DNA of 49,175 nucleotides, from sequence record ON062054.1. The stretch is one strand, 5' to 3'. Every line of letters starts with the position of its first letter. Within the stretch, counting starts at the first letter, position 1. The notes under the pieces are model-generated. The model did no database searches, was not told the origin of the DNA, and saw only the letters and a list, made by a program, of their open reading frames with translations. Below, piece by piece: positions 4,857-46,639 of the stretch. Source of the stretch: Escherichia phage P818. A program made the position numbers and the translations under genes.

Positions 4857-7800
4857 AGAAAGTACCTACCACAACTCTTCCTCCTCCAGGCAAGTTAACC
4901 GTTATTCCGTTTCCGTTAATCTGTACCGTATTGTTTGTTCCGTTGAATGCGAATTCACCACTGTTGGCGTACAGTTTACCGCGAATCTCAGCGTTACCAG
5001 ACTTATCAATCCTCCAGCCTGTGCTTCCTGCTACGTAGTTGCTGGACTGAATAAAGTTACCAATCTTCGCGTTAGTAATTGAGCCATCGCCAATTACAGC
5101 GCTTTGGATGATTACGTTTCCGTTCTCTACAACGAAGGGGAGTTGCCATTGACCGGAACCAGAACCAATTCCGTTACTGATTGCGAATCTGTTTGCGTCA
5201 AAAATGAACTGACTGCGAACGTTTCCATCAGTGCCAACTAGCTCCATGCTCATCCCTGCGCTATACTCAACCCCATTATATTTTAGACCTAACTTAACGC
5301 CGTACTGAGCGCCAGCGGATTCTGCATCCACCCAGGAATCAAGTTTTTCATTCAGTGCTGCCTGAGTATCTCCAAGCTGAGCACTCAGAGCTGTATCCGC
5401 CGTGGTCCTTGCTTCCGTTTCGGTGGCTAGTGCCGTCTGAACTTCAGTTATGGAGGCTACGACCTCATCATCAATCTGCGCTTTAAGCTGAGTGAGAGCC
5501 TCTACGCGAGCCTGAGTTTCATCGGCAATAAGATTCACTGCCTGAACGTATTCAGCCTTTCTCTTGCCGTTCTCCTTGGTCATTCGTCGAACGTCAGTAT
5601 CGTTTGCAAGTGCGTTTTCAAGAATTGACTCCGCCTGCGCCTGAATAGCTCCGTTTGACTCAATGGCGTTCTGCTGTAGGTACTTAAACCCCTCGGAATT
5701 CTCGATATCAACCTTTATCTCTCCAATGATTGACTCAACGTCATCGCTTGCCATTCCGCGAACAATGTCAGACCAGTCAGAGGCGTTACCAATCCTGTCT
5801 ACCAATCTTGCCCTGTACCAGTTCACATATCCTGCCGGTAGTGTCGAGTGCCAGTACTCGTACTGAGGGTATGGAATCATTGTTAACAGGCTTGCGTTCT
5901 CCTCGCCTGTGTGACCTCCGGCGCCATTATCTGGTATCTGCTGCAACTCAGTGTAGGCAGTGTCGCCAGAACCTTCAGGGAAACCCCATTTAACCCGTAT
6001 CCCAAACACCTGGTCGTCAGATGCAGTTATGACTGTTGGTTTATCTGGCTTCCCAATCTTACCCGTCAATCCGACGCTGACAACTTCAGACCATGGAGAC
6101 GTGTTTCCACCGCTTGAGATACTCCTTACGCGTACGTGATAATTACCCGCATAAATACCTTCCACTTCAACCTCTGAGCTTGCTGTGCGCGGCACGTTCA
6201 TCCAGTTGCCGTTATCCTTTCGCCACTGCACGTCGTACTTGCTCGCGTACTGAACCTTGTCCCACCCTATCACCATTGTCTCAACGCTCATCCCCTGCAC
6301 AATTCGAGAGTATGATGAAACGATAATGTTTTTTGGTGGCTGCATGTTGTCAGGATCAACAATGCTTGTTGGTCGGTCATCAATATTTACGCCGTAGTCG
6401 ATCTCATCGTATTTGTTTGGATCGTATTCAACCGCCGTGATGCTGTACGTGAACTCATCGTCTCCGTCGCCCTTCGTGATTCCGGTTACAACGTATTGCT
6501 GCAAGGCCACATCAGTGCGGTCGATTGCGAACACTGTGTTGGGTTGAACATCAAAACCGAATCCAACGTTAAGCTCAATGGTTTTCCCGTCCGCAGAAAC
6601 TTTTGAAATCGTCCGGCGCACCGGATTTCCGTCAGCCTTGTTCACGATAATGAAATCACCAGCGCGCGCATCGACCTTAAAGTGTGTGAACACTTGCAGG
6701 CCAGAAACTTCCATCACACGACCTGATAACGAAAGCGTCAGGTTACTTGACCAGAAGTTATCAGCGATTGCTACCACGTCGCCAATCATCGGAATCATAC
6801 CCTCAAGGCCAGTAGCAAAACTCACCGTCGTGCTGCGAAGGTTTGTTTTGAGAACCCAACGGCCCCGTCGATTCGCTTCACTGCGTCGAGTACACCCGAT
6901 CGCCGTGATGCTTGTCGGATTATGACCGAAGCGTAATGAGGCGTTAAGGTCGAATACCCCCTCAATGTCCTGGCTGTACATGTTCTGCTCGTCGTCGAAC
7001 GTGACGTTGCAGGTTGTGTACATGCTTTTTTCACTTGCGAACGTATAGGCAAATGAGCCATCAACGACGTTGTCGTTAGTGAAAATATATGAAGCCTCTC
7101 TCGGTCGGTCGATGACAATTGAGAGGCTCTCACCGTTCCAGAAGCTCATCCCTCGGAAGATTGAGCAAATATCTCGAACCAGATTGTAAGCCTCAACCTG
7201 AGATTGGATTACCACATCGCAAAGGTAGCGAGGCTCCAACCCTCCGTGACCGTCAGGAACCTTCTGATCGCAGTATTGACCAGCATCATATAGCGACCAC
7301 TTATCAACGGCGATCCCCAACTCTCTTTGGTCGAGTCCGTAGCGCTGATTGGTGATCAAATCATAAAGCACCCACGCCGGATTATTTGACCATGCTTTTT
7401 TAAAACTCCCATCCCATGTGCCGCTATATTCACGTAGCTCTGGGTTGTAGTTGCTCGGAACGTTAATGAGCTTCCATTTCTTTTTCGTGCTAATGCTTGG
7501 GATTTGCGTGAATAGATCGCTGTTAAACTCGACGTAAACAAGACCAGTCAGAGGGTAACGGAATTTAGCATCAACCACTTCGGCATAAGACTGAATGTTT
7601 ATCGTGTCAACGACGCGCGAATCAGTTGAATCAGCCGTAACGCGTCGCACACGCAATAGAACCTGACTATTGAACTTTGGGAGGTCGATTCGTTTTGTTT
7701 TGTCATATCCGCTAATTGTCTTACCGTCGATTACGTCTGATAAAACTTCCTGGTAGTTCCCGCCATCAACCGCCATATCTACGGCCCACTTCACAACCAC

Positions 7801-8890: not shown

Positions 8891-9609
8891 TTCTCTAACT
8901 CCTTATGCCTACATACCATCACCGTGTGTTCCTGGAACCAGCCTGAGTAAATGTCTGTCTTTGACAGCTTGCCGAATGCATGGTGAAGGAGTTGATTGTT
9001 TCCAAGGTAAATGCCTGCATGATTCCACACCTCGGCCTGTAGTTTCATGATTACCATGTCGCCAGGTTCAGGATCTTTCCCTGTTTCAACGAATCCCTCT
9101 TTGATGTAGTTGTCCTGGTATAGATTCTCTCCATACTCAGGCTTCCACCATTCGTAAGGCTTTCGGAAGTCATTCAGGATTACGCCTTGCTCTTTGTGCC
9201 ACGCCATCACTAAGCCCCAGCAATCGAATGAGCCAAGCGACCAGGGGCGACCAATCAGAGGCATGACTTCTGGATGAACGATTCTCATGTCACCTTCTGG
9301 CAGACTTACAATCACCCATGGCAATTCCATCTCATTCAATACGCACAGGTCGTGAGCGCTTGGTAAAGTGGTCGCCCCGTCGCCAGTGTGACTATGGACG
9401 ATGGCGATCGTGGTTAGGTCGTCGTCATCCTCAATGCAGGAGTATTGAACAGGGTCAAGTTGGAATCCTTTTTCCGGCTCAGAGTGAACATTGTCAACGG
9501 GCCAGTATTTCTGAACCCGCCCCTTTTGAGTCACCACCCCGCAACATTCATTGGGGTATACTGATTTCGCATGTTCGAAGATTGCCATCTTAATTTTGCC
9601 ATTAATCAT
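8884..9609 (-). CDS. Tail assembly protein (lambda K-like): JAMM/MPN plus NlpC/P60 domains
   Basis: 241 aa; JAMM motif HSHTGDGATTLPSAHD; Cys and His consistent with NlpC/P60; ATGA overlap with L. Confidence 0.75.
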   Translation of the reverse strand: MINGKIKMAIFEHAKSVYPNECCGVVTQKGRVQKYWPVDNVHSEPEKGFQLDPVQYSCIEDDDDLTTIAIVHSHTGDGATTLPSAHDLCVLNEMELPWVIVSLPEGDMRIVHPEVMPLIGRPWSLGSFDCWGLVMAWHKEQGVILNDFRKPYEWWKPEYGENLYQDNYIKEGFVETGKDPEPGDMVIMKLQAEVWNHAGIYLGNNQLLHHAFGKLSKTDIYSGWFQEHTVMVCRHKELEKC

Positions 9610-10352
9610 TGGTTTTTCCTGTCAAGTGATGCGATCGCACAGCCGCCGAAATCTAATTCATTTTTGTCGCCGAATCGTAATTTGCAGGCAGTTACAGTTC
9701 CTGCGCATACGTCCTGTGACGGATCAGTTACTGGATTGTTGTCTTTGTCAAACATCCGGCTTCCATTGTAACCGCAACCGCGTCCGCTTCGATACCATCC
9801 ACGCTGTGCCCAAAAACAAACACTCTGAGTAACTCGCGGTGGAATCATGATTCCGTCCATGTCGTATGGTGAAGTCAGATCAAATCGCGCAACGTTCTGA
9901 TCCACAAAGTTCGGCCTCTCAACGTAGTAAACGTATTTTCTGAAGTCACCGGGGGAAACATCGCCGTTGCTGCCGAGCATTTCTCGTGATGTTATCCAGA
10001 TAGTCACCTTAGCCTGCATCATGCCATTGTAGGATCGGATAAGGGCCGATACTCTGCTGTCAAGGTTGGATAAGGTTAACTGTGGTTTTCCTGCCTTTCC
10101 GTTACCGTTTAGGTCAATGCCTGATATGCCGAAAGGACGAGCGCCATATTCATTTCCCTGAAAGGTGATTGTTTTTGGCTGAAGGCTACCGCCTGGCTGT
10201 GTGGCTGCGAGAATCTCCTCCGGCGTAAACTGGATGTTTTCGTTGTGCATCCTATATACTTGCGCTCCAAACTTTGTGCCATCTATGTCAATCAGCGTTA
10301 TAATCTCGCCAGGAAAAAGCCCCTGCAAGACGTTCTCAAACTTAGGTGTCAT
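9606..10352 (-). CDS. Minor tail protein (lambda L-like)
   Basis: 248 aa; C-terminal Cys cluster consistent with gpL Fe-S site; synteny. Confidence 0.65.
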   Translation of the reverse strand: MTPKFENVLQGLFPGEIITLIDIDGTKFGAQVYRMHNENIQFTPEEILAATQPGGSLQPKTITFQGNEYGARPFGISGIDLNGNGKAGKPQLTLSNLDSRVSALIRSYNGMMQAKVTIWITSREMLGSNGDVSPGDFRKYVYYVERPNFVDQNVARFDLTSPYDMDGIMIPPRVTQSVCFWAQRGWYRSGRGCGYNGSRMFDKDNNPVTDPSQDVCAGTVTACKLRFGDKNELDFGGCAIASLDRKNQ

Positions 10353-18641: not shown

Positions 18642-19778
18642 TTACTTTTTGTTAATTAATTTTTTCAGTCGATCTTGCGGATCAAATGATTCGTTTTCTT
18701 TGACGTCAGACTTGTCGGCAGTGCCGAAAACCTTAACACGCTGAGCGGCCATTTTATCAGACTCTTTAGCCAAATCAAAGGCAGCTTCGATGTAAGAGTC
18801 AGATTTCTCTGCGGCATCAATACCTGAAACCTCCTTGATGTAGGCAACCTTAATTTCTTTCGCGCCAAGCCCATCGCACTTAATGCCAATTTCACCAGCA
18901 ATAGCAACCAGGCCAGCTAGTTCATCAGCGTCAGCTTTTGCTTTAGCAACAGCAGCTTCGATCTGCGCTGGAATGCCATCCACTTTAACTTTCAGAGCGT
19001 CGCGCTCAGCTTCAATTTCGCTAACCTTTTTATTTTTTGCATCTGCATCGGCCTTGATGGATGCGATGTGATCGGCTACTTCTTTGGATACTTCCACTTC
19101 TGCGGAATCAATTTTGATTTTTGCGGTCATTTTACTTTCCTCTTTGGGTAATTGAACATGCTCATCATATTTAATTTCTTCCGAGCCGTCAAGGTTTAAT
19201 CTGGCGATACCTGCGCGCCCATGCTTTACCTTGGCAACGTGGTTAGGGACGATGTTCGTTTGCAGTACATCGAACTCCTCCCACTCATCAGTCATGGGCG
19301 TTCCGTTAGGGAATTGCGCCGCCATACCTTCCGCGTCATCCTTGAAAACATACTCGCCAGTATTGACGTTTCCCCAGCCTTCGCGGTGGATGTCATTGGT
19401 CTTGTAACCAACTGATAATTCTGCTGCGTCGCCACGCTTGGCGGATTCAATTGATTCCCTGTCATGGATTACGATCGGACACTTCAAGCCAATTCCATCA
19501 CGGCGACCAGCGCCAGATAGTGAGCCAACAACAATCTTTCGCGCGTTGTCTGTGCTTACTTCCTGGTGGCCTTCTACGATCGGCATACCGCGAAATAGCT
19601 CCATGGCCTCAGCCTTGAACACTTCGTTAGCCGGACGGAACTCACGCTGCATTGTTCCATCAGATCGCATATATTCCTGAATACCGATTCGTGCAATGAT
19701 TGGCTCATCGTGCATGAATCCGTTCGAGTCAAAGCGTGCTTTCAGTTGCACGCTATCGTATCGTTGCTTAGTTGTCAT
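18642..19778 (-). CDS. Prohead protease / scaffolding protein
   Basis: 378 aa; globular N-terminal half, Ala/Lys/Glu-rich coiled-coil C-terminal half. Confidence 0.5.
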   Translation of the reverse strand: MTTKQRYDSVQLKARFDSNGFMHDEPIIARIGIQEYMRSDGTMQREFRPANEVFKAEAMELFRGMPIVEGHQEVSTDNARKIVVGSLSGAGRRDGIGLKCPIVIHDRESIESAKRGDAAELSVGYKTNDIHREGWGNVNTGEYVFKDDAEGMAAQFPNGTPMTDEWEEFDVLQTNIVPNHVAKVKHGRAGIARLNLDGSEEIKYDEHVQLPKEESKMTAKIKIDSAEVEVSKEVADHIASIKADADAKNKKVSEIEAERDALKVKVDGIPAQIEAAVAKAKADADELAGLVAIAGEIGIKCDGLGAKEIKVAYIKEVSGIDAAEKSDSYIEAAFDLAKESDKMAAQRVKVFGTADKSDVKENESFDPQDRLKKLINKK

Positions 19779-19787
19779 ATATTACCC

Positions 19788-20567
19788 TTATGTAATTGAT
19801 TGTGATTGTTTGCTGGTTGAGAAATCCGGAATTGCCCAACAACGGCAACCGTAAGGCTCCCCAGGGAAAGGATGGTCACTTGAGATCTCAATACGTTTAC
19901 CTTCCCATTTGACGTGCTGTAATCGCTCGCGCTCGTCTAACTTGCCATGCCAAAAATAGTGTGTTACTCCGGCATCGTCAAGGCGCTGACGCATCAGTAC
20001 ACTGTTCCAAGTGGATACAATTCCACGTGAGCGATTCACGGTCCATCCAGTATACACCTTGTAGCGCTGCTTTAAAACTTCATCAATCTGCTGACTGGTT
20101 TTATTGCGCACGTTTTCGACGCGTAGGTTTTGCGACCAGTCAGAGATGATGTCTCTCGCTAACTTTAAAATACTCGCCTCAGCCGAACCGCGCCATTGCG
20201 ATGACTTCTCGCGATACCATGACTCATTGGCATTCGCCCCCAGCACCCCAAGCAAGATTACAGACTGGTTCTTTCCGCCACCTGCCTTCTTAGCCACGCT
20301 GAGGAATTGCTTTGAGTTGAACTTGTATATAGTCAGGGCCAGTGCCGGAAGTGTGGCGACAATTGCTGCGATCATTCCGGCAGCGTATTCCTCTAGCTCA
20401 TCCTCTGCATCATTGATTTCTTCGTCCGAAGCGTCGAATCTCATCCCGCCAGTAAGCGATCTGGCTTTCTTTGCCATCTCGCCTGCGAAGGTTGACAATG
20501 AGCGGCTAAGCTGCCGCTCGCTTGCTTCGGGGTAACTCCATTGGTTTACAATGCCGTTAACCTTCAT
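19788..20567 (-). CDS. Minor head / head morphogenesis protein (Mu F-like)
   Basis: 259 aa directly downstream of the portal gene. Confidence 0.5.
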   Translation of the reverse strand: MKVNGIVNQWSYPEASERQLSRSLSTFAGEMAKKARSLTGGMRFDASDEEINDAEDELEEYAAGMIAAIVATLPALALTIYKFNSKQFLSVAKKAGGGKNQSVILLGVLGANANESWYREKSSQWRGSAEASILKLARDIISDWSQNLRVENVRNKTSQQIDEVLKQRYKVYTGWTVNRSRGIVSTWNSVLMRQRLDDAGVTHYFWHGKLDERERLQHVKWEGKRIEISSDHPFPGEPYGCRCWAIPDFSTSKQSQSIT

Positions 20568-20569
20568 GA

Positions 20570-21832
20570 TTATTCCTCGTTGTTCACCTGCGGGTTAATT
20601 TGTTCGATTTCTTCAAGCTCCGGCGCTGGGCCTTGAATCTTGATAAAGTCTGCGATTGCCTCAAGTGTATCACGCGCTTCGTCACGGTCAATCACCTGAT
20701 CTGCAACCAGCTTAGAGATTGAATCGACGTTATTCTTCAGTGTCTCAGACTGCTCTTTCTCGCTTGGCATTGATAATGGCTCAAAGCGTACAGACCACTC
20801 TTCCTCGCTAATCATCATTGGGATTAACCACTCCAGAAGCGGCCTGTAATACTCGTTACGCTTACGATCAATCATCTTATAGAAAGTCTCAAGCGCTGTA
20901 TTCTGGCTCGCTGACACGCCGCCTACGTTCTTATTCTTGAGGATAATCTCGTGAATCTGAGAATAGTTGACGATGCGATCCATCTTTTTATCAAGGAAGG
21001 TATCCACTCCGCTGATGTCAGAGTTTAGAACATCATACTCCTCGTCGGTAGCGTCGATGCCAACTGTCCGCCCTACACCGCTATTGTCATCAACCTGAGC
21101 CAGTCTAAGTCGCGCCGCATAACGACCTTCGTCATCATCACACAAATCAGCCAGCCCCTTCGCTTTCCATACGCCTTGTTGCTTACGGCGCAATAGCTGA
21201 GTGGCCAGCTCCTCGCAGTAGTTGTAATCCAGGATTGCATCAATTAGACCTTTACTCAGTACCGAAGCGCCCCAATCGTTATTCTTAGATCGAATCATGC
21301 CGGGCACTCGCTCGCCGCCATTGATGTAAATTCGTGAGTAGTGAACATCGTACTCAGGAACGCTTCCGCCAGGGCTAATGGTGTAAATCTTAGGCATTCC
21401 GTAGCGAGGATTTCGCGCGTTCTTCTCGCGGTCCTTGATGCGAACCTGCTCTTTTTCGTATACGCGGATTGATTCAAGCTGCGCACCTTCCTTGATTGGT
21501 GAAGTCAGTAGGCGGTTGTCACGGACTACGGCGACGATGGCGGAGCCACCATAAAGCCGCTCCCATGAGAACGCCTCTACGATCTGCTTATTCAGCTTCA
21601 TTCCATCCCACAAAGATTTGAACGCTTTCTCATCCTTCACACCGTCAAGGCCGAATCCAGGGAAAACCATTTCTTCTGGGATTACATCAACAATTTTCTT
21701 AGCCATAGGATCATCAATGTAAAACTGCGTCACGTACATCTGATCGTATAGCGATGCAAGCGCGCCGCCTGCCGTACCTTCACCCTTAAACGTCTTGTTG
21801 TAAGAGTCGGTCTTTACGCTTTTTTTACTCAT
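20570..21832 (-). CDS. Portal protein
   Basis: 420 aa; between terminase/HNH and head morphogenesis genes. Confidence 0.75.
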   Translation of the reverse strand: MSKKSVKTDSYNKTFKGEGTAGGALASLYDQMYVTQFYIDDPMAKKIVDVIPEEMVFPGFGLDGVKDEKAFKSLWDGMKLNKQIVEAFSWERLYGGSAIVAVVRDNRLLTSPIKEGAQLESIRVYEKEQVRIKDREKNARNPRYGMPKIYTISPGGSVPEYDVHYSRIYINGGERVPGMIRSKNNDWGASVLSKGLIDAILDYNYCEELATQLLRRKQQGVWKAKGLADLCDDDEGRYAARLRLAQVDDNSGVGRTVGIDATDEEYDVLNSDISGVDTFLDKKMDRIVNYSQIHEIILKNKNVGGVSASQNTALETFYKMIDRKRNEYYRPLLEWLIPMMISEEEWSVRFEPLSMPSEKEQSETLKNNVDSISKLVADQVIDRDEARDTLEAIADFIKIQGPAPELEEIEQINPQVNNEE

Positions 21833-21844
21833 CTGCTTTTCTCC

Positions 21845-21877
21845 AAATAAAAATGGCTAGGTTGTTAGCCTAGCCAT
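21845..21877 (-). terminator. Hairpin/terminator between HNH and portal genes
   Basis: Minus-sense TGGCTAGGCTAACAACCTAGCCA followed by TTTTTATTT. Confidence 0.5.
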
Positions 21878-21883
21878 TATACA

Positions 21884-22408
21884 TTATTTGATGTCTATCT
21901 TACCATGGTTTTCATGGTATCCAAGCCTGAACTCGGCTGATTTCCTGGCGCAAACCGCGTCAAACCAATCAGAGAAGTAGCCTAGTGATTTCCTCTCTCC
22001 CTTTCCTGAGTTTCCAATGAAAGCCCACCACTTAGACCTTGACTCATACCAATAAACACCTACACATCCACTCCTATTTCTGACAGATCTTTTCGTGTTC
22101 CTACCGTTATCCTTATGGGTAACAACCCTTAGATTCTCCCTCCTATTATCGTTCCTTACGTGATTTTTGTGGTCTATCTGCATTCCCTCTGGTATGTCTC
22201 CATTATCGAATTCCCACGCAAACCTATGAGCAAGAAGAGACACTCCACCTATCGTTATCCTCACATAACCATCAGCATCAATGGTTCCAGCTATATCACC
22301 TGGGTAGAATTTACTTTTCTTAACCTTAATCATCCATCTAACATGAGTTCCGTCATATGTTAGATAACCTTTGGCAATGTCATATATTTCACTTCTTGAG
22401 CCCTGCAT
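21884..22408 (-). CDS. HNH endonuclease with AP2-like domain (copy 1)
   Basis: 174 aa; DHKNHVRNDNRRENLRVVTHKDNGRN motif; TAATG overlap with large terminase gene. Confidence 0.8.
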   Translation of the reverse strand: MQGSRSEIYDIAKGYLTYDGTHVRWMIKVKKSKFYPGDIAGTIDADGYVRITIGGVSLLAHRFAWEFDNGDIPEGMQIDHKNHVRNDNRRENLRVVTHKDNGRNTKRSVRNRSGCVGVYWYESRSKWWAFIGNSGKGERKSLGYFSDWFDAVCARKSAEFRLGYHENHGKIDIK

Positions 22409-23997
22409 TACATCCCCTTACTTAATCCGGCTAAACGCTTCATTCTAGATACTGGATCATCCAACATGTTCATCTCAAAGTTTACAGCATCAAAGACGTT
22501 ATCGCAAATGTCATCGTGAGGAGATGAATCATCAAACGTGAATGAAACCAACTCAACCTCCATGTCACTTAACATTTCGTGAGACTCGGGAAAAACACAG
22601 CGCCCCGCTTTCATGATTGGCGCCGCGTCCATTGCGCGAGTTACCTTATCCGTATTTCGCTGAACTGGCGTAATGTCAATCGGTAGTTTCTTGTTGATTG
22701 ACTGGATCAGGCCAGTACCGCTCGCCTTGTCTTCAATGTAAACCTTGCGCAGTGAAGTCTTGTTATCCTTCGCCCATTTGAAGCAGTTGCCATAAAAGTT
22801 AAGGGCCATCTTTTCAAGTTCCGGCGCTTCCCACTTACCGCGAATGCCGTCGATGAAATATACGCGGTCCTTATACTTACCCCACAAAACAAATACGCTG
22901 TAGTCGTGTATTTCCTCTGCTTTCTGCGCTGTATCCGCAGTAGTGAACAGGTATTCGAAGCGTTCCGGTTTTGGCATGTTGGCTTTTTCGCCGTCGCCGT
23001 AATACTGGAACCAGTCCGACTTAAACGCGTTACCGCCAAGCGCGATTGGCTTCTGCTGATACTGAGACTCAAATGTGTACAGGTCAGCTTCGCGCAACGC
23101 CAGTAGGCTTTCTGCGCTCTCCTTCGCGGGCCAGAAAGAGAAGTGCTCAACCCCGTCAATCATTACCGATGGGGACGATAGCACGTCTTTATCAAATTCC
23201 TCTTTCAACCAGTCAGGAAGCGTGTCTCTGTATTCCTCAGTTACCAGCGCCGGAATGATTACCTGCTCAAACTTCATGCCACCCATACCGCCATTCATCA
23301 GGAACCAAGTCGCATCGTTTACGTGTAGCCGCTGCTGGACAACAACGCATGGTGTCTTGTCATTCATTCTTCGCGATCGAACGGTGTTCTTTAACAGCGT
23401 ATGACCAGCCTTTCTCTTTACTGCTGAGTATAGGTCTTTCGGCTTCTCAGGGTCATCAAGCGTCAGCATTCCGGTGAAGCCATCATCCATATAACCGCCA
23501 CGCTTACCAGTTACCTGACCACCGATCGCACGTGAAGTTAGAGTTAACCATGCCTTTTCCTTTGAGTTTAGAGCGGTAATGTCACCACCTGAAGCCTTTG
23601 CTAGTTTGCAGGGCCAAAGCTCCTGGAACTCATCAGAGCCGATAATCTCACGCGTCCTGATCCCGTTATCCTTAACGAGACTATCAGAGAATGAGAGGTT
23701 AAGATTCCTTATCTTCTCGCTCCTGAACATACAATACACTGGCATGTGAATGGAGAAGATCTCAGTCTTGCCAGAGCCTGGGGTAATGTTGAATATGATG
23801 TTTTGTATCTCACCTTTGATTATCTGCTCAACCTTCCAGCAAAGGTAGTTGAAGTGCCAATTAGACCTAAACTTTTGAGCCTGTATCAAAGCGAACCATA
23901 TGCGCATAAAATCACTAAAAGACCTCTCGCTCATCACCTTTATTACCGCCTTTTCCTTTGGTGTCAGATCTTCCCAAATCAATATCTTGTTAGACAT
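22408..23997 (-). CDS. Terminase large subunit
   Basis: 529 aa; Walker A-like TPGSGKTE near the N-terminus. Confidence 0.85.
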   Translation of the reverse strand: MSNKILIWEDLTPKEKAVIKVMSERSFSDFMRIWFALIQAQKFRSNWHFNYLCWKVEQIIKGEIQNIIFNITPGSGKTEIFSIHMPVYCMFRSEKIRNLNLSFSDSLVKDNGIRTREIIGSDEFQELWPCKLAKASGGDITALNSKEKAWLTLTSRAIGGQVTGKRGGYMDDGFTGMLTLDDPEKPKDLYSAVKRKAGHTLLKNTVRSRRMNDKTPCVVVQQRLHVNDATWFLMNGGMGGMKFEQVIIPALVTEEYRDTLPDWLKEEFDKDVLSSPSVMIDGVEHFSFWPAKESAESLLALREADLYTFESQYQQKPIALGGNAFKSDWFQYYGDGEKANMPKPERFEYLFTTADTAQKAEEIHDYSVFVLWGKYKDRVYFIDGIRGKWEAPELEKMALNFYGNCFKWAKDNKTSLRKVYIEDKASGTGLIQSINKKLPIDITPVQRNTDKVTRAMDAAPIMKAGRCVFPESHEMLSDMEVELVSFTFDDSSPHDDICDNVFDAVNFEMNMLDDPVSRMKRLAGLSKGM

Positions 23998-24056
23998 AGC
24001 AAAAACCCCTAAACATTAATTGTCAGGGGTTATTTTATCCACATAGTCAGATTTTA

Positions 24057-24575
24057 TCAAATCTTATCAAGTACGCTTTTCACGGCATCCTCAATCGTTT
24101 GAGTGTCATTCACTACATTGCTTACGTTGACCTCAGCCGCCTTGTCGATACCAATGTCTTTGCCTACGAATCCGGCGTTGATAAGGTTGGACGCAGCTAA
24201 CTGATATTTCTGTTCAATAATTACTGAGTCGATGAACTCCATTACCTCAGAGAATCCAGGCGACGCGCGCCAGCTTTGGATCGCACCGGAGGTAACGCCG
24301 CAATAAAGCTGGAAGCCGTTGAGCGTGAACACTCGCGGCTTGTGCACTAAGTTCTCGGTGACAACACCCTGGAAGCTCGCCGTTTCGATTGCCTTGATTG
24401 CCTGGTCCTCGGCCCATGAGAAATACTTAACCGCCAGGTTGAATACAGTCTCAGGTGTCATTGGATGGCGATGGTTCAGATTGGCAATGTCGCCATACTT
24501 TTTATTGTATAGCTCTTTGAAGTTACCGATTCGAACCTTCTCGTTAGCGTGACTGGTGAAGTTTTCGTCTTTCAT
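24057..24575 (-). CDS. Putative terminase small subunit
   Basis: 172 aa immediately upstream of large terminase; GGGGG RBS. Confidence 0.5.
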   Translation of the reverse strand: MKDENFTSHANEKVRIGNFKELYNKKYGDIANLNHRHPMTPETVFNLAVKYFSWAEDQAIKAIETASFQGVVTENLVHKPRVFTLNGFQLYCGVTSGAIQSWRASPGFSEVMEFIDSVIIEQKYQLAASNLINAGFVGKDIGIDKAAEVNVSNVVNDTQTIEDAVKSVLDKI

Positions 24576-25058: not shown

Positions 25059-25243
25059 ATCAAACCTCATTGTTATGTCCGGTTACGGAGTCCGGAAGGC
25101 TTTCACAATGCCTCGATTGTATTGCGACTTACACTTTGCTTTTGGCGATGCGCTATTTCAATTTGCGGCTTACGAACCGCTCGTTGCCACTTGGCGGCCT
25201 CTTCTGTTTACGAGATTAAAGATACCAGTCAGCGAGATTTCTG

Positions 25244-25438
25244 TCAATCGACTTTTTTAAAAGTTCCATACGTCGGGCAAACAGGGTAGTCGATCGCGAC
25301 CTTGTTCCCCTCGTCACTGTAGACGTAAACGTATCCCTGGGAATCAACTTTTTCCACTGTGTACTCGCAGCCAGTAAAGAACTCATAACCGCGCGCGCCG
25401 ATACACTTGATCACGTCACCCTTCTTGATCTTACTCAT
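25244..25438 (-). CDS. Hypothetical small protein
   Basis: 64 aa; start refined to MSKIKKG with GGAGAAAG RBS and 8-nt overlap (ATGAGTAA). Confidence 0.45.
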   Translation of the reverse strand: MSKIKKGDVIKCIGARGYEFFTGCEYTVEKVDSQGYVYVYSDEGNKVAIDYPVCPTYGTFKKVD

Positions 25439-33505: not shown

Positions 33506-33663
33506 TGCTCAAGCCATCCGATTTGAACTACTACGACAACGACACGATCGCGAAGCTCTCAGGTCAAGGATGGTATCCATGGAGCACCAGCGCTCAGGTT
33601 GAAGACTTGCAAAGCAGTTACGAAATCACACAGAAAGCAATTGAGAAGGCTAAGAAGAAATGA
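33505..33663 (+). CDS. Hypothetical small protein (52 aa)
   Basis: Not in the ORF track; TAATG coupling upstream, ATGA coupling downstream; AAGGTGA RBS. Confidence 0.35.
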   Translation: MLKPSDLNYYDNDTIAKLSGQGWYPWSTSAQVEDLQSSYEITQKAIEKAKKK

Positions 33664-34229
33664 ATAGAAAAAGAAGTCCAGACGGAAAATTTTCTGGTGA
33701 TCCGCTACTACCTGGAGGTTTTCATAATTGCAACTCATGCGGAATTAAAAAGGAGGCTGACGATAAAAACTTTAGAACAATAAATAAAGGAAAAACATGC
33801 GAGAGCCTAAGCAAAACTTGCAGAAAATGCGAGTATCAAAAAGGAAAGGATAAACACGCAAGGAACATGAAAAACCCTGAATTTGCAGATGCTAGAAGGG
33901 AAAGGTGCAGGAACTGGAGGAGCAACAACAGAAGTAAGGTGGCGCTTAAAAATTATCAAGCAATAGATAAAAAGAAAGGACTTACATGCACCATGACAAT
34001 TGATGATGTTGAGGAGTTGCAGTCAATGCCATGCTACTATTGCGGAGATACGGATCGGGTTGGTGCTGACAGGATTGACAACTCACTTGCTCACACGCGC
34101 AAAAACTGCCTTCCATGTTGCCCTGATTGTAATATCTGTAGGAGTAACACTTTTTCAGTTGATGAGATGATGGTGATAGGCAAAGCGATAAGACTCGTAA
34201 AGAAATCAAGAAATAGCACGAATTGCTAA
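33660..34229 (+). CDS. HNH-type endonuclease / zinc-finger protein
   Basis: 189 aa; multiple CxxC pairs and RIDNSLAHTRKNCLPCCPDCN motif. Confidence 0.6.
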   Translation: MNRKRSPDGKFSGDPLLPGGFHNCNSCGIKKEADDKNFRTINKGKTCESLSKTCRKCEYQKGKDKHARNMKNPEFADARRERCRNWRSNNRSKVALKNYQAIDKKKGLTCTMTIDDVEELQSMPCYYCGDTDRVGADRIDNSLAHTRKNCLPCCPDCNICRSNTFSVDEMMVIGKAIRLVKKSRNSTNC

Positions 34230-34230
34230 A
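34211..34230 (+). promoter_or_regulatory. Dyad motif copy 12
   Basis: AAATAGCACGAATTGCTAAA (translated as NSTNC-stop); terminator hairpin in 22-bp spacer; TATATT; CATCCCATCGAAACGAA box. Confidence 0.6.
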
Positions 34231-34294
34231 GCCCTTCGGGGCTTTTCCTGTATATTCATCCCATCGAAACGAAACACACTAAAGGAAAATAATC

Positions 34295-38267: not shown

Positions 38268-38289
38268 GTTTTAACAAAAAGTGCTATTT
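38268..38289 (-). promoter_or_regulatory. Dyad motif copy 13
   Basis: Minus-sense TAA-ATAGCACTTTTTGTTAAAAC; hairpin AGCGCC...GGCGCT in 22-bp spacer; TATATT. Confidence 0.6.
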
Positions 38290-39418
38290 ACATACCAGGG
38301 CGATAAATGTGTCGACCAACCTCTCCGAACTCCTTGTGGTAAACAATTGCAGCCGCTTGGCGGTATGATCGCCACCCTCCGCGAGCGGCATATGCATCCT
38401 TGCTAGCCAGCGCTGGGTGAACCTCGTCAATCCCAAGAGTGCACTCTGTAACAGTTGCATGATGGAAATGGCCGGAGTGGCAGTAAACAAACTCACATTC
38501 ACCAAAGTCTTTGCGGTAGTCGGTCGCCATTGCTGCGAGTCGACCCTCAGCTTTCTTCATCGTGTGACCGTGCGTGTAACCAAGTAGTGTTGAACCAAAT
38601 CTTGTTTTGTGCATGATTGCCGGACTGGTATCAACAAACACTCGACTCTCGTCTTCATAAAATGCAGCCATTGCCGCGCGAAGCCAAATCATACCACTTT
38701 GGTCATGATTTCCCTCTATAATCTGAATCTCGACATTTTTATGCTTTTTAAGCATCTTCTCTACTGCACCACGAATTGAGCGAATCGCAACATAAACTAA
38801 CTTAGCATATCGGCTATCCTGATCAAGGCAGTGTCCGCTTGCTGGAGTTACCGCCTCCAACCCATCAGAGTGGAGGAAGTCTCCACCAACTAAAATCACG
38901 GCTTTCTCTGAGGCTGGTGATACAGAGATTGCGTGGTCAAAATATGACCCCATTAATTTCTCTGCCGTTTTAGTGTCATAATTCTCACCAGATTCATGGC
39001 GATGTGCCATCATGCCGATATGGATATCGAAAATAGGGTAAAGAGTCATTAATTCAGACTTGACCTCATTGCCTGAGTGGATTACCACATCTGCCTTCGG
39101 CAACTCCGAACAAAAAGCCTCACGCGCCTGTTCCATCAGAACCTCAAGGCGCTCATTATCAATTGAGGTCTTAACCCACCGGATCTTCTCGTTACCTTCC
39201 GCATCAATCATGGTTGACGTGCCTTTTACAGCGAATCCATCAGGAACATATTTAGCAACAGCTTTGTTACCGTGTCCGTGACCTTTCTTGGCCAGGTTGC
39301 TTGAGCGTTGCTCAACAGTTCTAATGTTCATCCCATATTCCTGGGCGATCTGACGCAGTGTTTTACCAGCTTCGCGCTCGGCAATGAATTGTTCGTCGCT
39401 AATTTTCTTAATTGACAT
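38288..39418 (-). CDS. Metallophosphoesterase (protein phosphatase-like) with N-terminal HTH
   Basis: 376 aa; N-terminal sigma-70-region-4-like HTH; calcineurin-like motifs GDFLHSDG, GNHD, GHTHGH, GHFH. Confidence 0.7.
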   Translation of the reverse strand: MSIKKISDEQFIAEREAGKTLRQIAQEYGMNIRTVEQRSSNLAKKGHGHGNKAVAKYVPDGFAVKGTSTMIDAEGNEKIRWVKTSIDNERLEVLMEQAREAFCSELPKADVVIHSGNEVKSELMTLYPIFDIHIGMMAHRHESGENYDTKTAEKLMGSYFDHAISVSPASEKAVILVGGDFLHSDGLEAVTPASGHCLDQDSRYAKLVYVAIRSIRGAVEKMLKKHKNVEIQIIEGNHDQSGMIWLRAAMAAFYEDESRVFVDTSPAIMHKTRFGSTLLGYTHGHTMKKAEGRLAAMATDYRKDFGECEFVYCHSGHFHHATVTECTLGIDEVHPALASKDAYAARGGWRSYRQAAAIVYHKEFGEVGRHIYRPGM

Positions 39419-39421
39419 CTT

Positions 39422-39907
39422 TTATTCTCCGTGATTCTTGTGAAATTTAAATTTTCTTTGAAATTGCATTCTACACAATTTAGCTTCCTCTATCGAGCCA
39501 AAGTAACCAAGGTGCATTAACTTTCCATCTACCTTTATCCTGGCGACATACTTTGATAGAGGTTTATGCCATGAAACACCAGTAACTCCGGTTGAGTTGT
39601 CAGATCGCATAGACTGGTTTCTTCCATTCTCCGTCCTTGTAACAAGTCTCAAATTCGATATGTTATTGTTGCTCCTGTCATGGTCTATGTGGTCTATCTC
39701 CATCCCTTCAGGTATATCTCCGTTATGGAGATACCAAACGACAATATGAACCCTGTAATTTTTTTTGTTAAACATCATTTGCCAGTATCCAGTTACTTTA
39801 CTGACGCAACCGCACTTACTGCCAACTTTTATCTTCTTGCTTTTTGATCTCTTCCAGACCAAATGAAGATCATCATCATACTCAACAAAATCAATAAGCT
39901 CTTTCAC
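39422..39907 (-). CDS. HNH endonuclease with AP2-like domain (copy 2)
   Basis: 161 aa; EIDHIDHDRSNNNISNLRLVTRTENGRN motif; paralog of copies 1 and 3. Confidence 0.8.
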   Translation of the reverse strand: MKELIDFVEYDDDLHLVWKRSKSKKIKVGSKCGCVSKVTGYWQMMFNKKNYRVHIVVWYLHNGDIPEGMEIDHIDHDRSNNNISNLRLVTRTENGRNQSMRSDNSTGVTGVSWHKPLSKYVARIKVDGKLMHLGYFGSIEEAKLCRMQFQRKFKFHKNHGE

Positions 39908-45074: not shown

Positions 45075-45080
45075 CAATCA

Positions 45081-45096
45081 AGGGGCGCTAGCCCCT
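45081..45096. terminator. Hairpin between convergent genes (weak terminator)
   Basis: AGGGGCGCTAGCCCCT palindrome; no strong T-run. Confidence 0.35.
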
Positions 45097-45105
45097 TCAT
45101 CTGAT

Positions 45106-45654
45106 CTATCTATCTCCGTCACACCCAAACTCACCATGATAATAATTACTGGCTTTTAAGTACGCTTCACGCGCCGACTCCTTTGTGGTATGCCTTCCTA
45201 GCCATATTTTTTTATTATTAACCCATATCCACGCCGTGTACTTCCCTGTTTGCTTGCAGAATCCAACGCCTTTTACTCCTGATGTATTGTGAGATGGTTT
45301 TTTCATATTTCTATTGTTCTCAGATGATGACGCTTCCCTTAGGTTTTCTATCCTATTGTCAGTCCTGATCCCGTTTTTATGATCTATATACTTAGAAGGC
45401 CATTCACCTTTACAAAGCGCCCATGAAACCCTATGGCATTTAACGTCGAATCCGAAAAATCTGAAAACCTTATAACCAGATTTATGGACCGTTCCGGCCT
45501 CATCTCCAGATTTAACCCTATTAGATGTGCTTTTTACCCAAATTATAACTCCGTTGTCGTATTTAAGGTAATTCCTAAGCATATCAATACTAATCAATGA
45601 CTCTTTTGCCTTCATTAAATCAAAGTCTTTGCTCATTTCATTTTCCTCATTCAT
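45106..45654 (-). CDS. HNH endonuclease with AP2-like domain (copy 3)
   Basis: 182 aa; YIDHKNGIRTDNRIENLREASSSENNRN motif. Confidence 0.8.
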   Translation of the reverse strand: MNEENEMSKDFDLMKAKESLISIDMLRNYLKYDNGVIIWVKSTSNRVKSGDEAGTVHKSGYKVFRFFGFDVKCHRVSWALCKGEWPSKYIDHKNGIRTDNRIENLREASSSENNRNMKKPSHNTSGVKGVGFCKQTGKYTAWIWVNNKKIWLGRHTTKESAREAYLKASNYYHGEFGCDGDR

Positions 45655-45697
45655 GTGTTATGCTTTTAATCATACCAACCGTAACATGAGATAGTCA

Positions 45698-46639
45698 ATG
45701 ATGGATATGTATCAAAAAGAGGAAGTTATACCTTACATGAAGGGTCTTTGGAGGGAAGCTCTGCAATCAATATGTGGCCTTGATAACTCATACTTCACGA
45801 AGCGACATGGGCCATGCCCGCATTGCTTTGGAAAGGACCGTTTCCGGTGGACTGACGAACTAGAATCCCCTGGTGACGGCGGCGCGATCTGTAACGGATG
45901 TGGTAACGATAAAGGCGTCGGCTGGATGATGAAACTGACTGGTGAGCCTTACAGTGAAGTGATTAACATCCTTGGTAGATTCCTTGGTAAAGTTCCGCAG
46001 GATTACAAAGCTAAGGCTTACCGCAGGGCGTCTCGCGTACCGGAGAAAGGCCTTGGCAGGATGGCGGATCATGAGTCGTGCGTATCTGTAATGGAGCGCA
46101 CAGAAAAGCGCGAGAGCACCGATTTAAGCGTGTATGAGTGCCTAACCGAAGATTCATATGATGTTGGCGTAAAAGTGCGTCAGAATGGCACTGAGGAGCT
46201 AATACACGCACTACCGTGCTACATGGTCCACCATGACGGAATTGATGAGGATATGTGTAACGTCATGTTTGCTTATGATAATGGCGAATACACTTTCCTT
46301 GCGCGTGATTATTCTCGCGGCTCAGTGGTTAAGCTGGGGAGTGGTGAGGATGATGCAGCTATATATATGACAAGCGATCTGATTGATGGTTATCGTGTGA
46401 AGATGGCGACCAGTCAGGAAGTGTGGGTGACTTTCTCCCCTGAGAATCTTGAGATTGTTGCTTATCGTTATCGTGGCGATCGAGAGTTGCGAGTTGCTTG
46501 TGCGGCTGACGATTTGAGAACGCTTTACATGGCTGATGAGAGAGATTTGAAGGTCGTCGTGCCGAACGGTGGAAACTTCAAGATGGGCCTTGAGCGAAAG
46601 CTATATACGCCGCAGGATCTGATAGATAAGTATTCATGA
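45698..46639 (+). CDS. Putative DNA primase (zinc-binding N-terminal domain)
   Basis: 313 aa; CPHC...CNGC zinc-ribbon-like motif near N-terminus; adjacent to helicase. Confidence 0.55.
   Translation: MMDMYQKEEVIPYMKGLWREALQSICGLDNSYFTKRHGPCPHCFGKDRFRWTDELESPGDGGAICNGCGNDKGVGWMMKLTGEPYSEVINILGRFLGKVPQDYKAKAYRRASRVPEKGLGRMADHESCVSVMERTEKRESTDLSVYECLTEDSYDVGVKVRQNGTEELIHALPCYMVHHDGIDEDMCNVMFAYDNGEYTFLARDYSRGSVVKLGSGEDDAAIYMTSDLIDGYRVKMATSQEVWVTFSPENLEIVAYRYRGDRELRVACAADDLRTLYMADERDLKVVVPNGGNFKMGLERKLYTPQDLIDKYS

Follow-up and report, generated by a model that had tools for sequence, protein, structure and literature searches.

HNH_3 genes with an AP2-like end, probably free-standing homing endonuclease genes, in Escherichia phage P818, including one between the large terminase and portal genes

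Nuclease genes of the phage and their family

The stretch of DNA analysed (hereafter the window; 49,175 nucleotides of Escherichia phage P818, record ON062054.1) was assigned by its best DNA matches to a Nouzillyvirus coliphage (Drexlerviridae, T1-like). Its closest DNA relatives were Escherichia phages XT34, p111, CJ19, ESCO41, PH1062, 50EP, GaoY1-9D, BUCT-XGG-1, TH21, TH27, and TH30, with 84-93% identity across 72-84% of the window. Three HNH genes were identified on the minus strand, namely HNH-1 (21884-22408, 174 aa), HNH-2 (39422-39907, 161 aa, GTG start), and HNH-3 (45106-45654, 182 aa), together with a fourth nuclease gene on the plus strand (33660-34229, 189 aa). All four open reading frames had been listed in an initial annotation made from the sequence alone, and the HNH core that it attributed to the first three was confirmed by matches to Pfam HNH_3 (PF13392; 67.1, 80.7, and 54.3 bits for HNH-1, HNH-2, and HNH-3 against a cut-off of 24.8, with E-values of 1e-18, 5.9e-23, and 1e-14) and to phrog_99 "HNH endonuclease," which covered the three proteins end to end (E 4.5e-56 for HNH-1 to 8.5e-66). 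The DH..N...NL..N..N catalytic motif was complete in 3/3 proteins, in which DHKNHVRNDNRRENLRVVTHKDNGRN and its equivalents, including the catalytic Asp-His and the metal-binding or structural Asn residues, aligned with vvDHKD...NLRwvTqkiN of I-HmuI. Pairwise identity among the three proteins was 33-37% and each was nearer to genes occupying the same slot in other phages, and recent duplication was therefore rejected; the earlier description of the genes as paralogous stands in the sense that they are, as judged from their sequences, distant members of one family, but not in the sense of recent copies.

The C-terminal region was less readily assigned by profile than by fold. Pfam AP2 (cut-off 33.3) scored below threshold in HNH-2 (23.9 bits) and HNH-3 (28.1 bits), and HNH-1 gave no AP2 match even at E<=10. 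The structure predicted for HNH-1 by AlphaFold2 (pLDDT 90.3, 45 sequences) ended in a three-strand sheet plus helix (beta3-alpha), and Foldseek placed I-HmuI (1u3e) first among its matches (probability 1.00, 98 columns, rmsd 3.1, with a weak E of 0.011), followed by the AP2 domains of WRINKLED1 (7wq5) and AtERF1 (1gcc), both with a probability of 1.00 and the latter with a TM of 0.60 on the target. Across the AP2 matches 7wq5, 1gcc, and 7et5 the probabilities were 0.99-1.00 with weak E-values of 0.05-0.17. The sole PDB match of HNH-1 by sequence was again I-HmuI (E 0.0066, residues 42-105). HNH-1 would thus begin with an I-HmuI-like N-terminal part, continue with the HNH_3 core, and end in an AP2-like C-terminal domain, and the AP2-like end that had been proposed for all three proteins is upheld by the fold of the HNH-1 model, but by profile it is sub-threshold in two of them and absent from HNH-1.

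The HNH open reading frames were separate from the neighboring open reading frames, giving no intron or intein context. Scanning the whole window with Rfam at gathering thresholds revealed no intron RNA family, which ruled out that any HNH gene lies within a group I or II intron, and no tRNAs were found. The dN/dS ratio was 0.055 both for HNH-1 (window versus CJ19) and for HNH-2 (window versus TH30) and the proteins have therefore been kept functional, a value equally compatible with an active homing enzyme and with other roles. Near-identical or identical proteins in GenBank are already labeled homing endonucleases, including p111 UGV21801.1, which is 100% identical to HNH-1. A literature search found no paper studying these HNH genes, and in the CJ19 genome paper such genes appear in a table only.

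A census of the family was carried out in 12 Nouzillyvirus genomes (the window and 11 whole genomes, a small and non-independent set) by searching every open reading frame with a profile made from the three HNH proteins of the window and mapping the flanks of each match onto window coordinates. It identified 35 family genes in ~15 slots with 1-6 per genome, the fewest in 50EP and GaoY1 (one each) and the most in XT34 (six). Protein identity was 89-100% inside a slot versus 28-49% across slots, and each slot therefore has a lineage to itself, the pattern that site-specific homing endonucleases would be expected to show. Broken or shortened copies were present in BUCT-XGG-1 (9599-9913 plus 9938-10081), GaoY1, and TH27, and together with the ATG to ACG change at the start of the XT34 copy of HNH-1 they could indicate that the genes are the decaying, now inactive remains of earlier invasions. 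This is barely credible for the window, where all three open reading frames have their full length, the motifs are intact, the starts are plausible, and dN/dS is 0.055.

The slot between the large terminase and portal genes

The genes of this region lie on the minus strand in the order TerS (24057-24575, P22-gp3-type), TerL (large terminase subunit; 22408-23997, Terminase_6C 2e-10), HNH-1 (21884-22408), and portal (20570-21832, Phage_portal_3 6.6e-68). HNH-1 is carried by 4/12 genomes, i.e., the window, p111 (100% aa identity), XT34 (99%), and CJ19 (89%), and its lineage is referred to as HEG-A. ESCO41 and PH1062 (2/12) have another HNH gene in the slot, 46% identical to HNH-1 at the amino acid level, with its own GTG start and ribosome-binding site, preceded by a longer TerL tail. 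The remaining 6/12 genomes (50EP, BUCT-XGG-1, GaoY1, TH21, TH27, and TH30) have an empty slot. An IMG/VR search with TerL yielded six close relatives, one of them probably ESCO41, and the five further T1-like contigs also had an empty slot; the other 36 loci, with a TerL just 30-39% identical, were informative solely for the closeness of TerL and portal. Among relatives with a TerL 31-38% identical in which both genes were located, the TerL-portal gap was -4 to 208 nt with the exception of L061 (1229 nt), and none of these loci gave an HNH match there. The empty slots and short gaps indicate that direct TerL-portal adjacency is likely the ancestral state and that the HNH gene is likely an insertion. 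Orthologues 57-73% identical to HNH-1 occupy the same TerL/portal position in other Drexlerviridae with different junctions.

The empty junction was identical in 6/6 genomes, reading ..GGAATGCG/CAAATAATGTATAATGG with the slash at the insertion point (short form GGAATGCG/CAAATAA; longer ...GGAATGCG/CAAATAATGTATAATGGCTAGG...), and that of the window read ...GGATTAAGTAAGGGGATGTAATG...(HNH-1)...GACAT/CAAATAATGTATAATGG. BLAST breakpoints against 50EP and the junction alignment of the 12 genomes delimited an inserted segment of ~530-535 bp at 21891-22425 on the minus strand, its left edge being ambiguous by ~5 nt. The insert swaps the last three TerL codons, replacing MRK-stop by LSKGM-stop, and in addition to this new tail and stop codon it supplies the ribosome-binding site AAGGGG and the HNH-1 open reading frame, the end of which re-uses the former last codon and stop of TerL (AAA TAA). 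A hairpin with a T-run detected by a terminator scan (21852-21878, minus strand) between the slot and the portal start, with TGTATAAT just upstream, is unchanged in 6/6 empty genomes and therefore belongs to the backbone outside the insert.

As reported in the initial annotation, the HNH-1 start overlaps the terminase stop. In the overlap sequence GGGGATGTAATGCAG, the TerL stop TAA (22410-22408) and the HNH-1 ATG (22408-22406) share one A (TAATG), with AAGGGG 5 nt ahead of the ATG. Co-transcription and TAATG coupling of HNH-1 to TerL are plausible from this arrangement. The further claim of co-translation with the packaging genes holds to this extent for the window, but the coupling is lost in the carrier XT34, where the ATG is changed to ACG and starting at the next in-frame ATG would cut off conserved N-terminal strands, and it is absent from the L021 and IME542 orthologues (57% identical), in which the HNH gene follows a 60-nt spacer with a ribosome-binding site of its own. 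The junction of the L020 orthologue is TAAATG without overlap. The coupling looks like an expression trick of the insert rather than evidence for a function in common with TerL.

The location of HNH-1 had been taken to suggest assistance to terminase cleavage, i.e., that HNH-1 is a packaging accessory subunit made with TerL and acting like HK97 gp74 or Skunavirus HrdP. Its position between TerL and portal with overlapping start, the 57-73% identical orthologues that hold this position in other Drexlerviridae, and the strong purifying selection on HNH-1 (dN/dS 0.055) would all suit such a subunit. The explanation is nevertheless highly improbable when set against a slot that is empty in 6/12 genomes and in the five further T1-like contigs and occupied by another lineage in 2/12, 50EP and GaoY1 without any HNH gene near the terminase genes, and a coupling that is not kept (XT34 without the coupled ATG; L021 and IME542 uncoupled). 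The proteins of the gp74 type, which we take to belong to Pfam HNH (PF01844), find no counterpart in HNH-1 because the general HNH profile was unmatched and HNH_3 was the only such profile detected even at E<=10; a packaging-type HNH among the fold matches was limited to a weak and irrelevant Gme HNH (E 5.5). T1-like phages package by the headful mechanism, and gp74-type proteins serve cos phages. TerS of the window matches P22 gp3 (GP3_package) and the relatives were deposited as circular records with permuted starts, which suggest headful packaging here as well. In HK97, gp74 is encoded at the cos site, ahead of the terminase genes (PMC10448857), and packaging HNHs are described as highly conserved in their genus, HrdP being essential (PMC12967558). 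HNH-1 resembles both as an HNH-superfamily nuclease encoded adjoining the terminase genes and differs in being optional, located between TerL and portal, of the HNH_3 plus AP2 type, and accompanied by a P22-gp3-type TerS. Barth et al. (PMC10448857) regard homing and packaging as not mutually exclusive, and HNH-1 may have a minor accessory effect on packaging; from the optional slot, the lineage swap, and the uncoupled orthologues it follows that a packaging-cofactor role is unsupported, and the packaging machine does not require HNH-1.

Sequence divergence beside the slot was consistent with homing. Within the last 20 TerL codons (22429-22467, minus strand), seven fixed differences separated the four carriers from the six empty genomes, at 22429, 22435, 22446, 22449, 22453, 22462, and 22467, 4-42 nt upstream of the insertion. 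Seven fixed differences thus fell in the 74 columns beside the insert versus seven in the 3881 others between 20100 and 25000 (Fisher p=1.9e-9). By codon reading 5/7 are silent, and the two replacements (S517A and M511L) are conservative. A flanking haplotype linked to the homing endonuclease gene (HEG) is what gene conversion predicts, and we infer from the linkage that 22429-22467 is the region of the target site and of immunity changes. Divergence from 50EP rose from 1-7 differences per 75 nt in mid TerL to 18-22 beside the TerL/portal slot, and reached 25-35 per 75 nt at the TerS/TerL end, where p111 has another HNH gene; the portal side of the slot was 96-100% identical to all relatives. 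GaoY1 is without HNH-1 yet has carrier-type TerL sequence from 22500 upward and looks like a recombinant, and the target can therefore be placed no more precisely than in the last ~300 bp of TerL. The fixed-difference test gave no signal at the HNH-2 and HNH-3 sites, where it is limited by carriers that differ in the allele of the downstream gene (HNH-2) and by junction columns that are unalignable (HNH-3).

The linked haplotype also bears on whether the genes have been domesticated and have ceased homing, either cutting the DNA of competitors without gene conversion or acting as AP2-based regulators or in counter-defence. Endonuclease domains have been repeatedly domesticated (Barth et al., PMC10448857) and AP2 domains derived from homing endonucleases are transcriptional silencers in phage CasPR proteins (bioRxiv 10.64898/2026.02.23.707548), and the purifying selection seen here would suit this fate too. 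Domestication is nonetheless quite unlikely given that the catalytic HNH motif is intact in 3/3 proteins while CasPRs are without an HNH domain, that each lineage keeps to one slot with clean empty alleles in close relatives, and that the flanking haplotype is as gene conversion predicts.

The remaining slots and mosaic junctions

HNH-2 was identified in the window and TH30 only (92% aa identity), 10/12 genomes being empty at this site. It separates the ATG of a gene for a 376-aa protein from the ribosome-binding site of that gene (AAGGA), such that HNH-2 with its GTG start takes AAGGA and its last codons give GGAG to the 376-aa gene. In TH30, HNH-2 adjoins the other allele of the 376-aa gene. 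HNH-3 is shared by the window, p111, and PH1062 (99% aa identity) as an antisense cassette between a regulator gene and a primase gene. Across the 12 genomes its slot comprised three carriers, one genome with another lineage, one with another insert, six that were empty by alignment, and CJ19, empty by annotation; in BUCT-XGG-1 it holds a different HNH gene on the opposite strand. The cassette has a promoter-like site (TTGACT, 18 nt, TG-n-TATGAT; 45669-45698, minus strand) that is missing from the empty alleles, and a GC-rich hairpin follows HNH-3 (45080-45097, minus strand) where the empty alleles have a different hairpin.

The initial annotation further proposed that the HNH genes mark likely mosaic junctions, and identity in the 600 nt on each side of a gene was compared with that at all genome positions. 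At 39422-39907, identity to 8/11 relatives dropped from ~94% to ~68% exactly at the gene (at least the 98th percentile), these same relatives being ~94% identical upstream of the HNH-2 site and 58-77% across the 376-aa gene. The proposal is borne out by this sharp step at HNH-2 but not at the other three sites, since the step at the TerL/portal site was not significant (42nd-75th percentile) and the results for 45106-45654 and 33660-34229 were inconsistent and not significant.

The fourth gene (33660-34229) had been called a different, Cys-rich HNH protein. The open reading frame and its Cys-richness were evident, and an HNH-like nature is reasonable though weakly supported: the protein matched phrog_1035 "endonuclease VII" (6.8e-17), its last 45 residues gave a short and weak alignment with the HNH-type restriction enzyme PacI (3ldy, phmmer E 1.7e-3) suggesting a PacI-like beta-beta-alpha-metal C-terminus, and Pfam yielded no match in this gene. 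The likeness to PacI (PDB 3LDY) lies in the C-terminal vGaDRiDn...C..CN..kSN stretch and the Cys-richness, whereas the gene differs from PacI in occupying a polymorphic phage slot with no methylase partner in the window. It is common to the window and BUCT-XGG-1 only (98% aa identity). Elsewhere the slot is filled by a DNA methylase gene in five genomes, by a methylase gene together with an HNH_3 gene in 50EP, and by ~225 bp in p111 and TH27, and distant copies (30-36% identical) occur in other slots of ESCO41 and TH27. This distribution fits a second family of mobile nuclease genes, a suggestion that carries a weak family assignment.

Homing endonuclease interpretation and comparison with known systems

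The alignment of related genomes revealed HNH genes that are present or absent by genome and not at identical positions in all relatives. All four nuclease genes show presence/absence with clean junctions inside the genus and no intron RNA family, in agreement with the earlier reading of free-standing homing endonucleases. We consider HNH-1, HNH-2, and HNH-3 to be site-specific free-standing homing endonuclease genes of the HNH_3 plus AP2 type with one slot per lineage, with a probability of about 0.85. Cleavage, its position, and homing itself are what we infer by analogy. During co-infection with a relative lacking the gene, the enzyme would nick or cut the DNA of the relative near the empty slot, as modeled on I-HmuI and T4 Seg/Mob. 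Recognition of the target site, which for HNH-1 would lie in the last ~60-300 bp of TerL, would be the task of the N-terminal part together with the AP2 domain, and repair off the carrier genome would copy the endonuclease gene plus a short flanking tract into the relative. The carrier would be protected by the insertion and by the linked, mostly silent substitutions at 22429-22467. Each gene appears to have its own arrangement with its neighbors. HNH-1 would be expressed behind a rewritten TerL tail, with translation probably by termination-reinitiation at TAATG on the late packaging transcript; HNH-2 would take the ribosome-binding site of the next gene and donate a new one; and HNH-3 would form an antisense cassette with its own promoter-like site and hairpin.

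The presence/absence pattern could partly reflect deletion instead of gain. That one lineage has been maintained at TerL/portal across genera, under strong purifying selection, would likewise be compatible with a useful accessory role. In some other phages the portal is contacted by the very end of the TerL C-terminal tail. It is conceivable, if improbable, that HNH-1 is more than a parasite, being either a weapon co-produced with TerL, which would cut the terminase gene of co-infecting relatives devoid of HNH-1 and thereby exclude them from packaging, or a modulator of TerL-portal docking via the changed tail.

Homing as the preferred interpretation has several implications. A nuclease gene beside terminase should not be equated with a packaging factor until relatives have been checked. 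The TerL/portal site yields a defined empty-site sequence and a 40-nt linked haplotype in or next to which the recognition site should lie, and the three insertions would represent three distinct ways for selfish inserts to keep neighbor genes expressed. Nouzillyvirus would lend itself well, as a natural system, to studies of how homing endonucleases turn over in T1-like phages, and the genes with their flanks are expected recombination hot spots when engineering or typing therapeutic-candidate coliphages.

The structural archetype of HNH_3 is I-HmuI of Bacillus phage SPO1 (1U3E), with which the proteins share the DH...N...N motif and an HNH core preceded by an N-terminal beta region; at 174 aa HNH-1 is monomer-sized as is I-HmuI, an enzyme that nicks one strand. 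I-HmuI differs in sitting in a group I intron and having a helix-turn-helix C-terminus, whereas the genes described here are free-standing with an AP2-like end. The Seg and Mob genes of T4 are located between essential genes, differ in their presence from one close relative to the next, and have their flanking markers co-converted; they are expressed at low levels riding on host operons, their cleavage sites have been mapped, and the Seg proteins are GIY-YIG enzymes. The genes of the window are alike in their placement between essential genes and in their presence/absence, while their targets are deduced from linked polymorphism.

The elements are of a known kind and belong to a described family (HNH_3 with AP2), HNH plus AP2 having been presented as a homing-endonuclease family by Magnani et al. 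(2004), as cited in PMC10448857. Homing endonuclease genes cluster by terminase and other essential genes (PMC10448857). The "IPA-HNH" proteins of Vibrio phage ICP1 likewise combine an N-terminal HNH with a C-terminal AP2 domain, although the ICP1 copies are too divergent for the HNH_3 profile that the copies described here match strongly. As in Nouzillyvirus, several "IPA-HNH" copies per genome are found beside essential genes including terminase, and they also mark boundaries of genetic exchange (PMC10448857).

Endonuclease slots at the ends of the terminase gene

HNH-1, the HNH_3 gene with an AP2-like region between TerL and portal (21884-22408, minus strand), has an orthologue in XT34 (OR767160.1, 10720-11244) where the overlap site equivalent to window 22406-22408 is altered. 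The TAATG overlap reads TAACG in that genome, so the orthologue lacks the coupled start, and the XT34 record enters it as a shorter ORF misnamed "histidinol-phosphate aminotransferase". Loss of the coupled start may represent an early stage of decay of the gene.

A further HNH_3 gene was identified in p111 (20154-20666) at the TerS/TerL junction, corresponding to window 23884-24123, with its ORF overlapping the TerL start; this gene is absent from the window. The 5' end of TerL and the 3' end of TerS in the window gave no alignment to 50EP, and TerL divergence between the window and 50EP was highest at the 5' end (25-35 differences per 75 nt). The junction data therefore place endonuclease slots, i.e., sites filled in some genomes and empty in others, at both ends of TerL with a divergence peak at each. 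ARAGORN found no tRNA across the entire window; in ESCO41 the packaging genes are preceded by a tRNA-Arg(tct) (7289-7366), at a position approximating window 25100-25300.

Slots among the head genes and at a nuclease/methylase locus

The slot occupied most often in the genus lies at the junction of the head-morphogenesis and scaffold/protease genes (window 19772-19834), being empty in the window and filled in BUCT-XGG-1, CJ19, ESCO41, TH21, and TH30 by an HNH/AP2 gene annotated as "AP2 domain protein". At the variable slot spanning 33506-34294, the window carries the PacI-like nuclease, TH30, TH21, XT34, CJ19, and ESCO41 each carry a DNA methyltransferase, and 50EP has an HNH_3 gene alongside a methylase; the slot is nearly empty in p111 and TH27. 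Nuclease and methylase thus alternate at this single locus.

Records named for Campylobacter phages (including A110b and A134) and Pseudomonas phage PsgS01F shared 83-88% DNA identity with the coliphage group of the window, and these labels may reflect wrong host names or contaminants in the records.

Alleles of the 376-aa gene beside HNH-2

The 376-aa gene downstream of HNH-2 (window 38288-39418) is annotated as "DNA repair exonuclease" in relatives, and a Pfam search with the window gene returned no match. In TH27 and TH30 an HNH gene was identified next to the opposite end (near window 38288), such that endonuclease genes lie on both sides of the 376-aa gene in TH30. The gene occurs as two alleles approximately 60-75% identical to each other, the XT34 comparison being partial due to a run of N within the gene (equivalent to window about 39200-39330). 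The window-type allele is common to p111, ESCO41, and GaoY1 and was also found in the other-genus phages BEK6, JulesPiccard, and RobRod40 at 85-88% identity.
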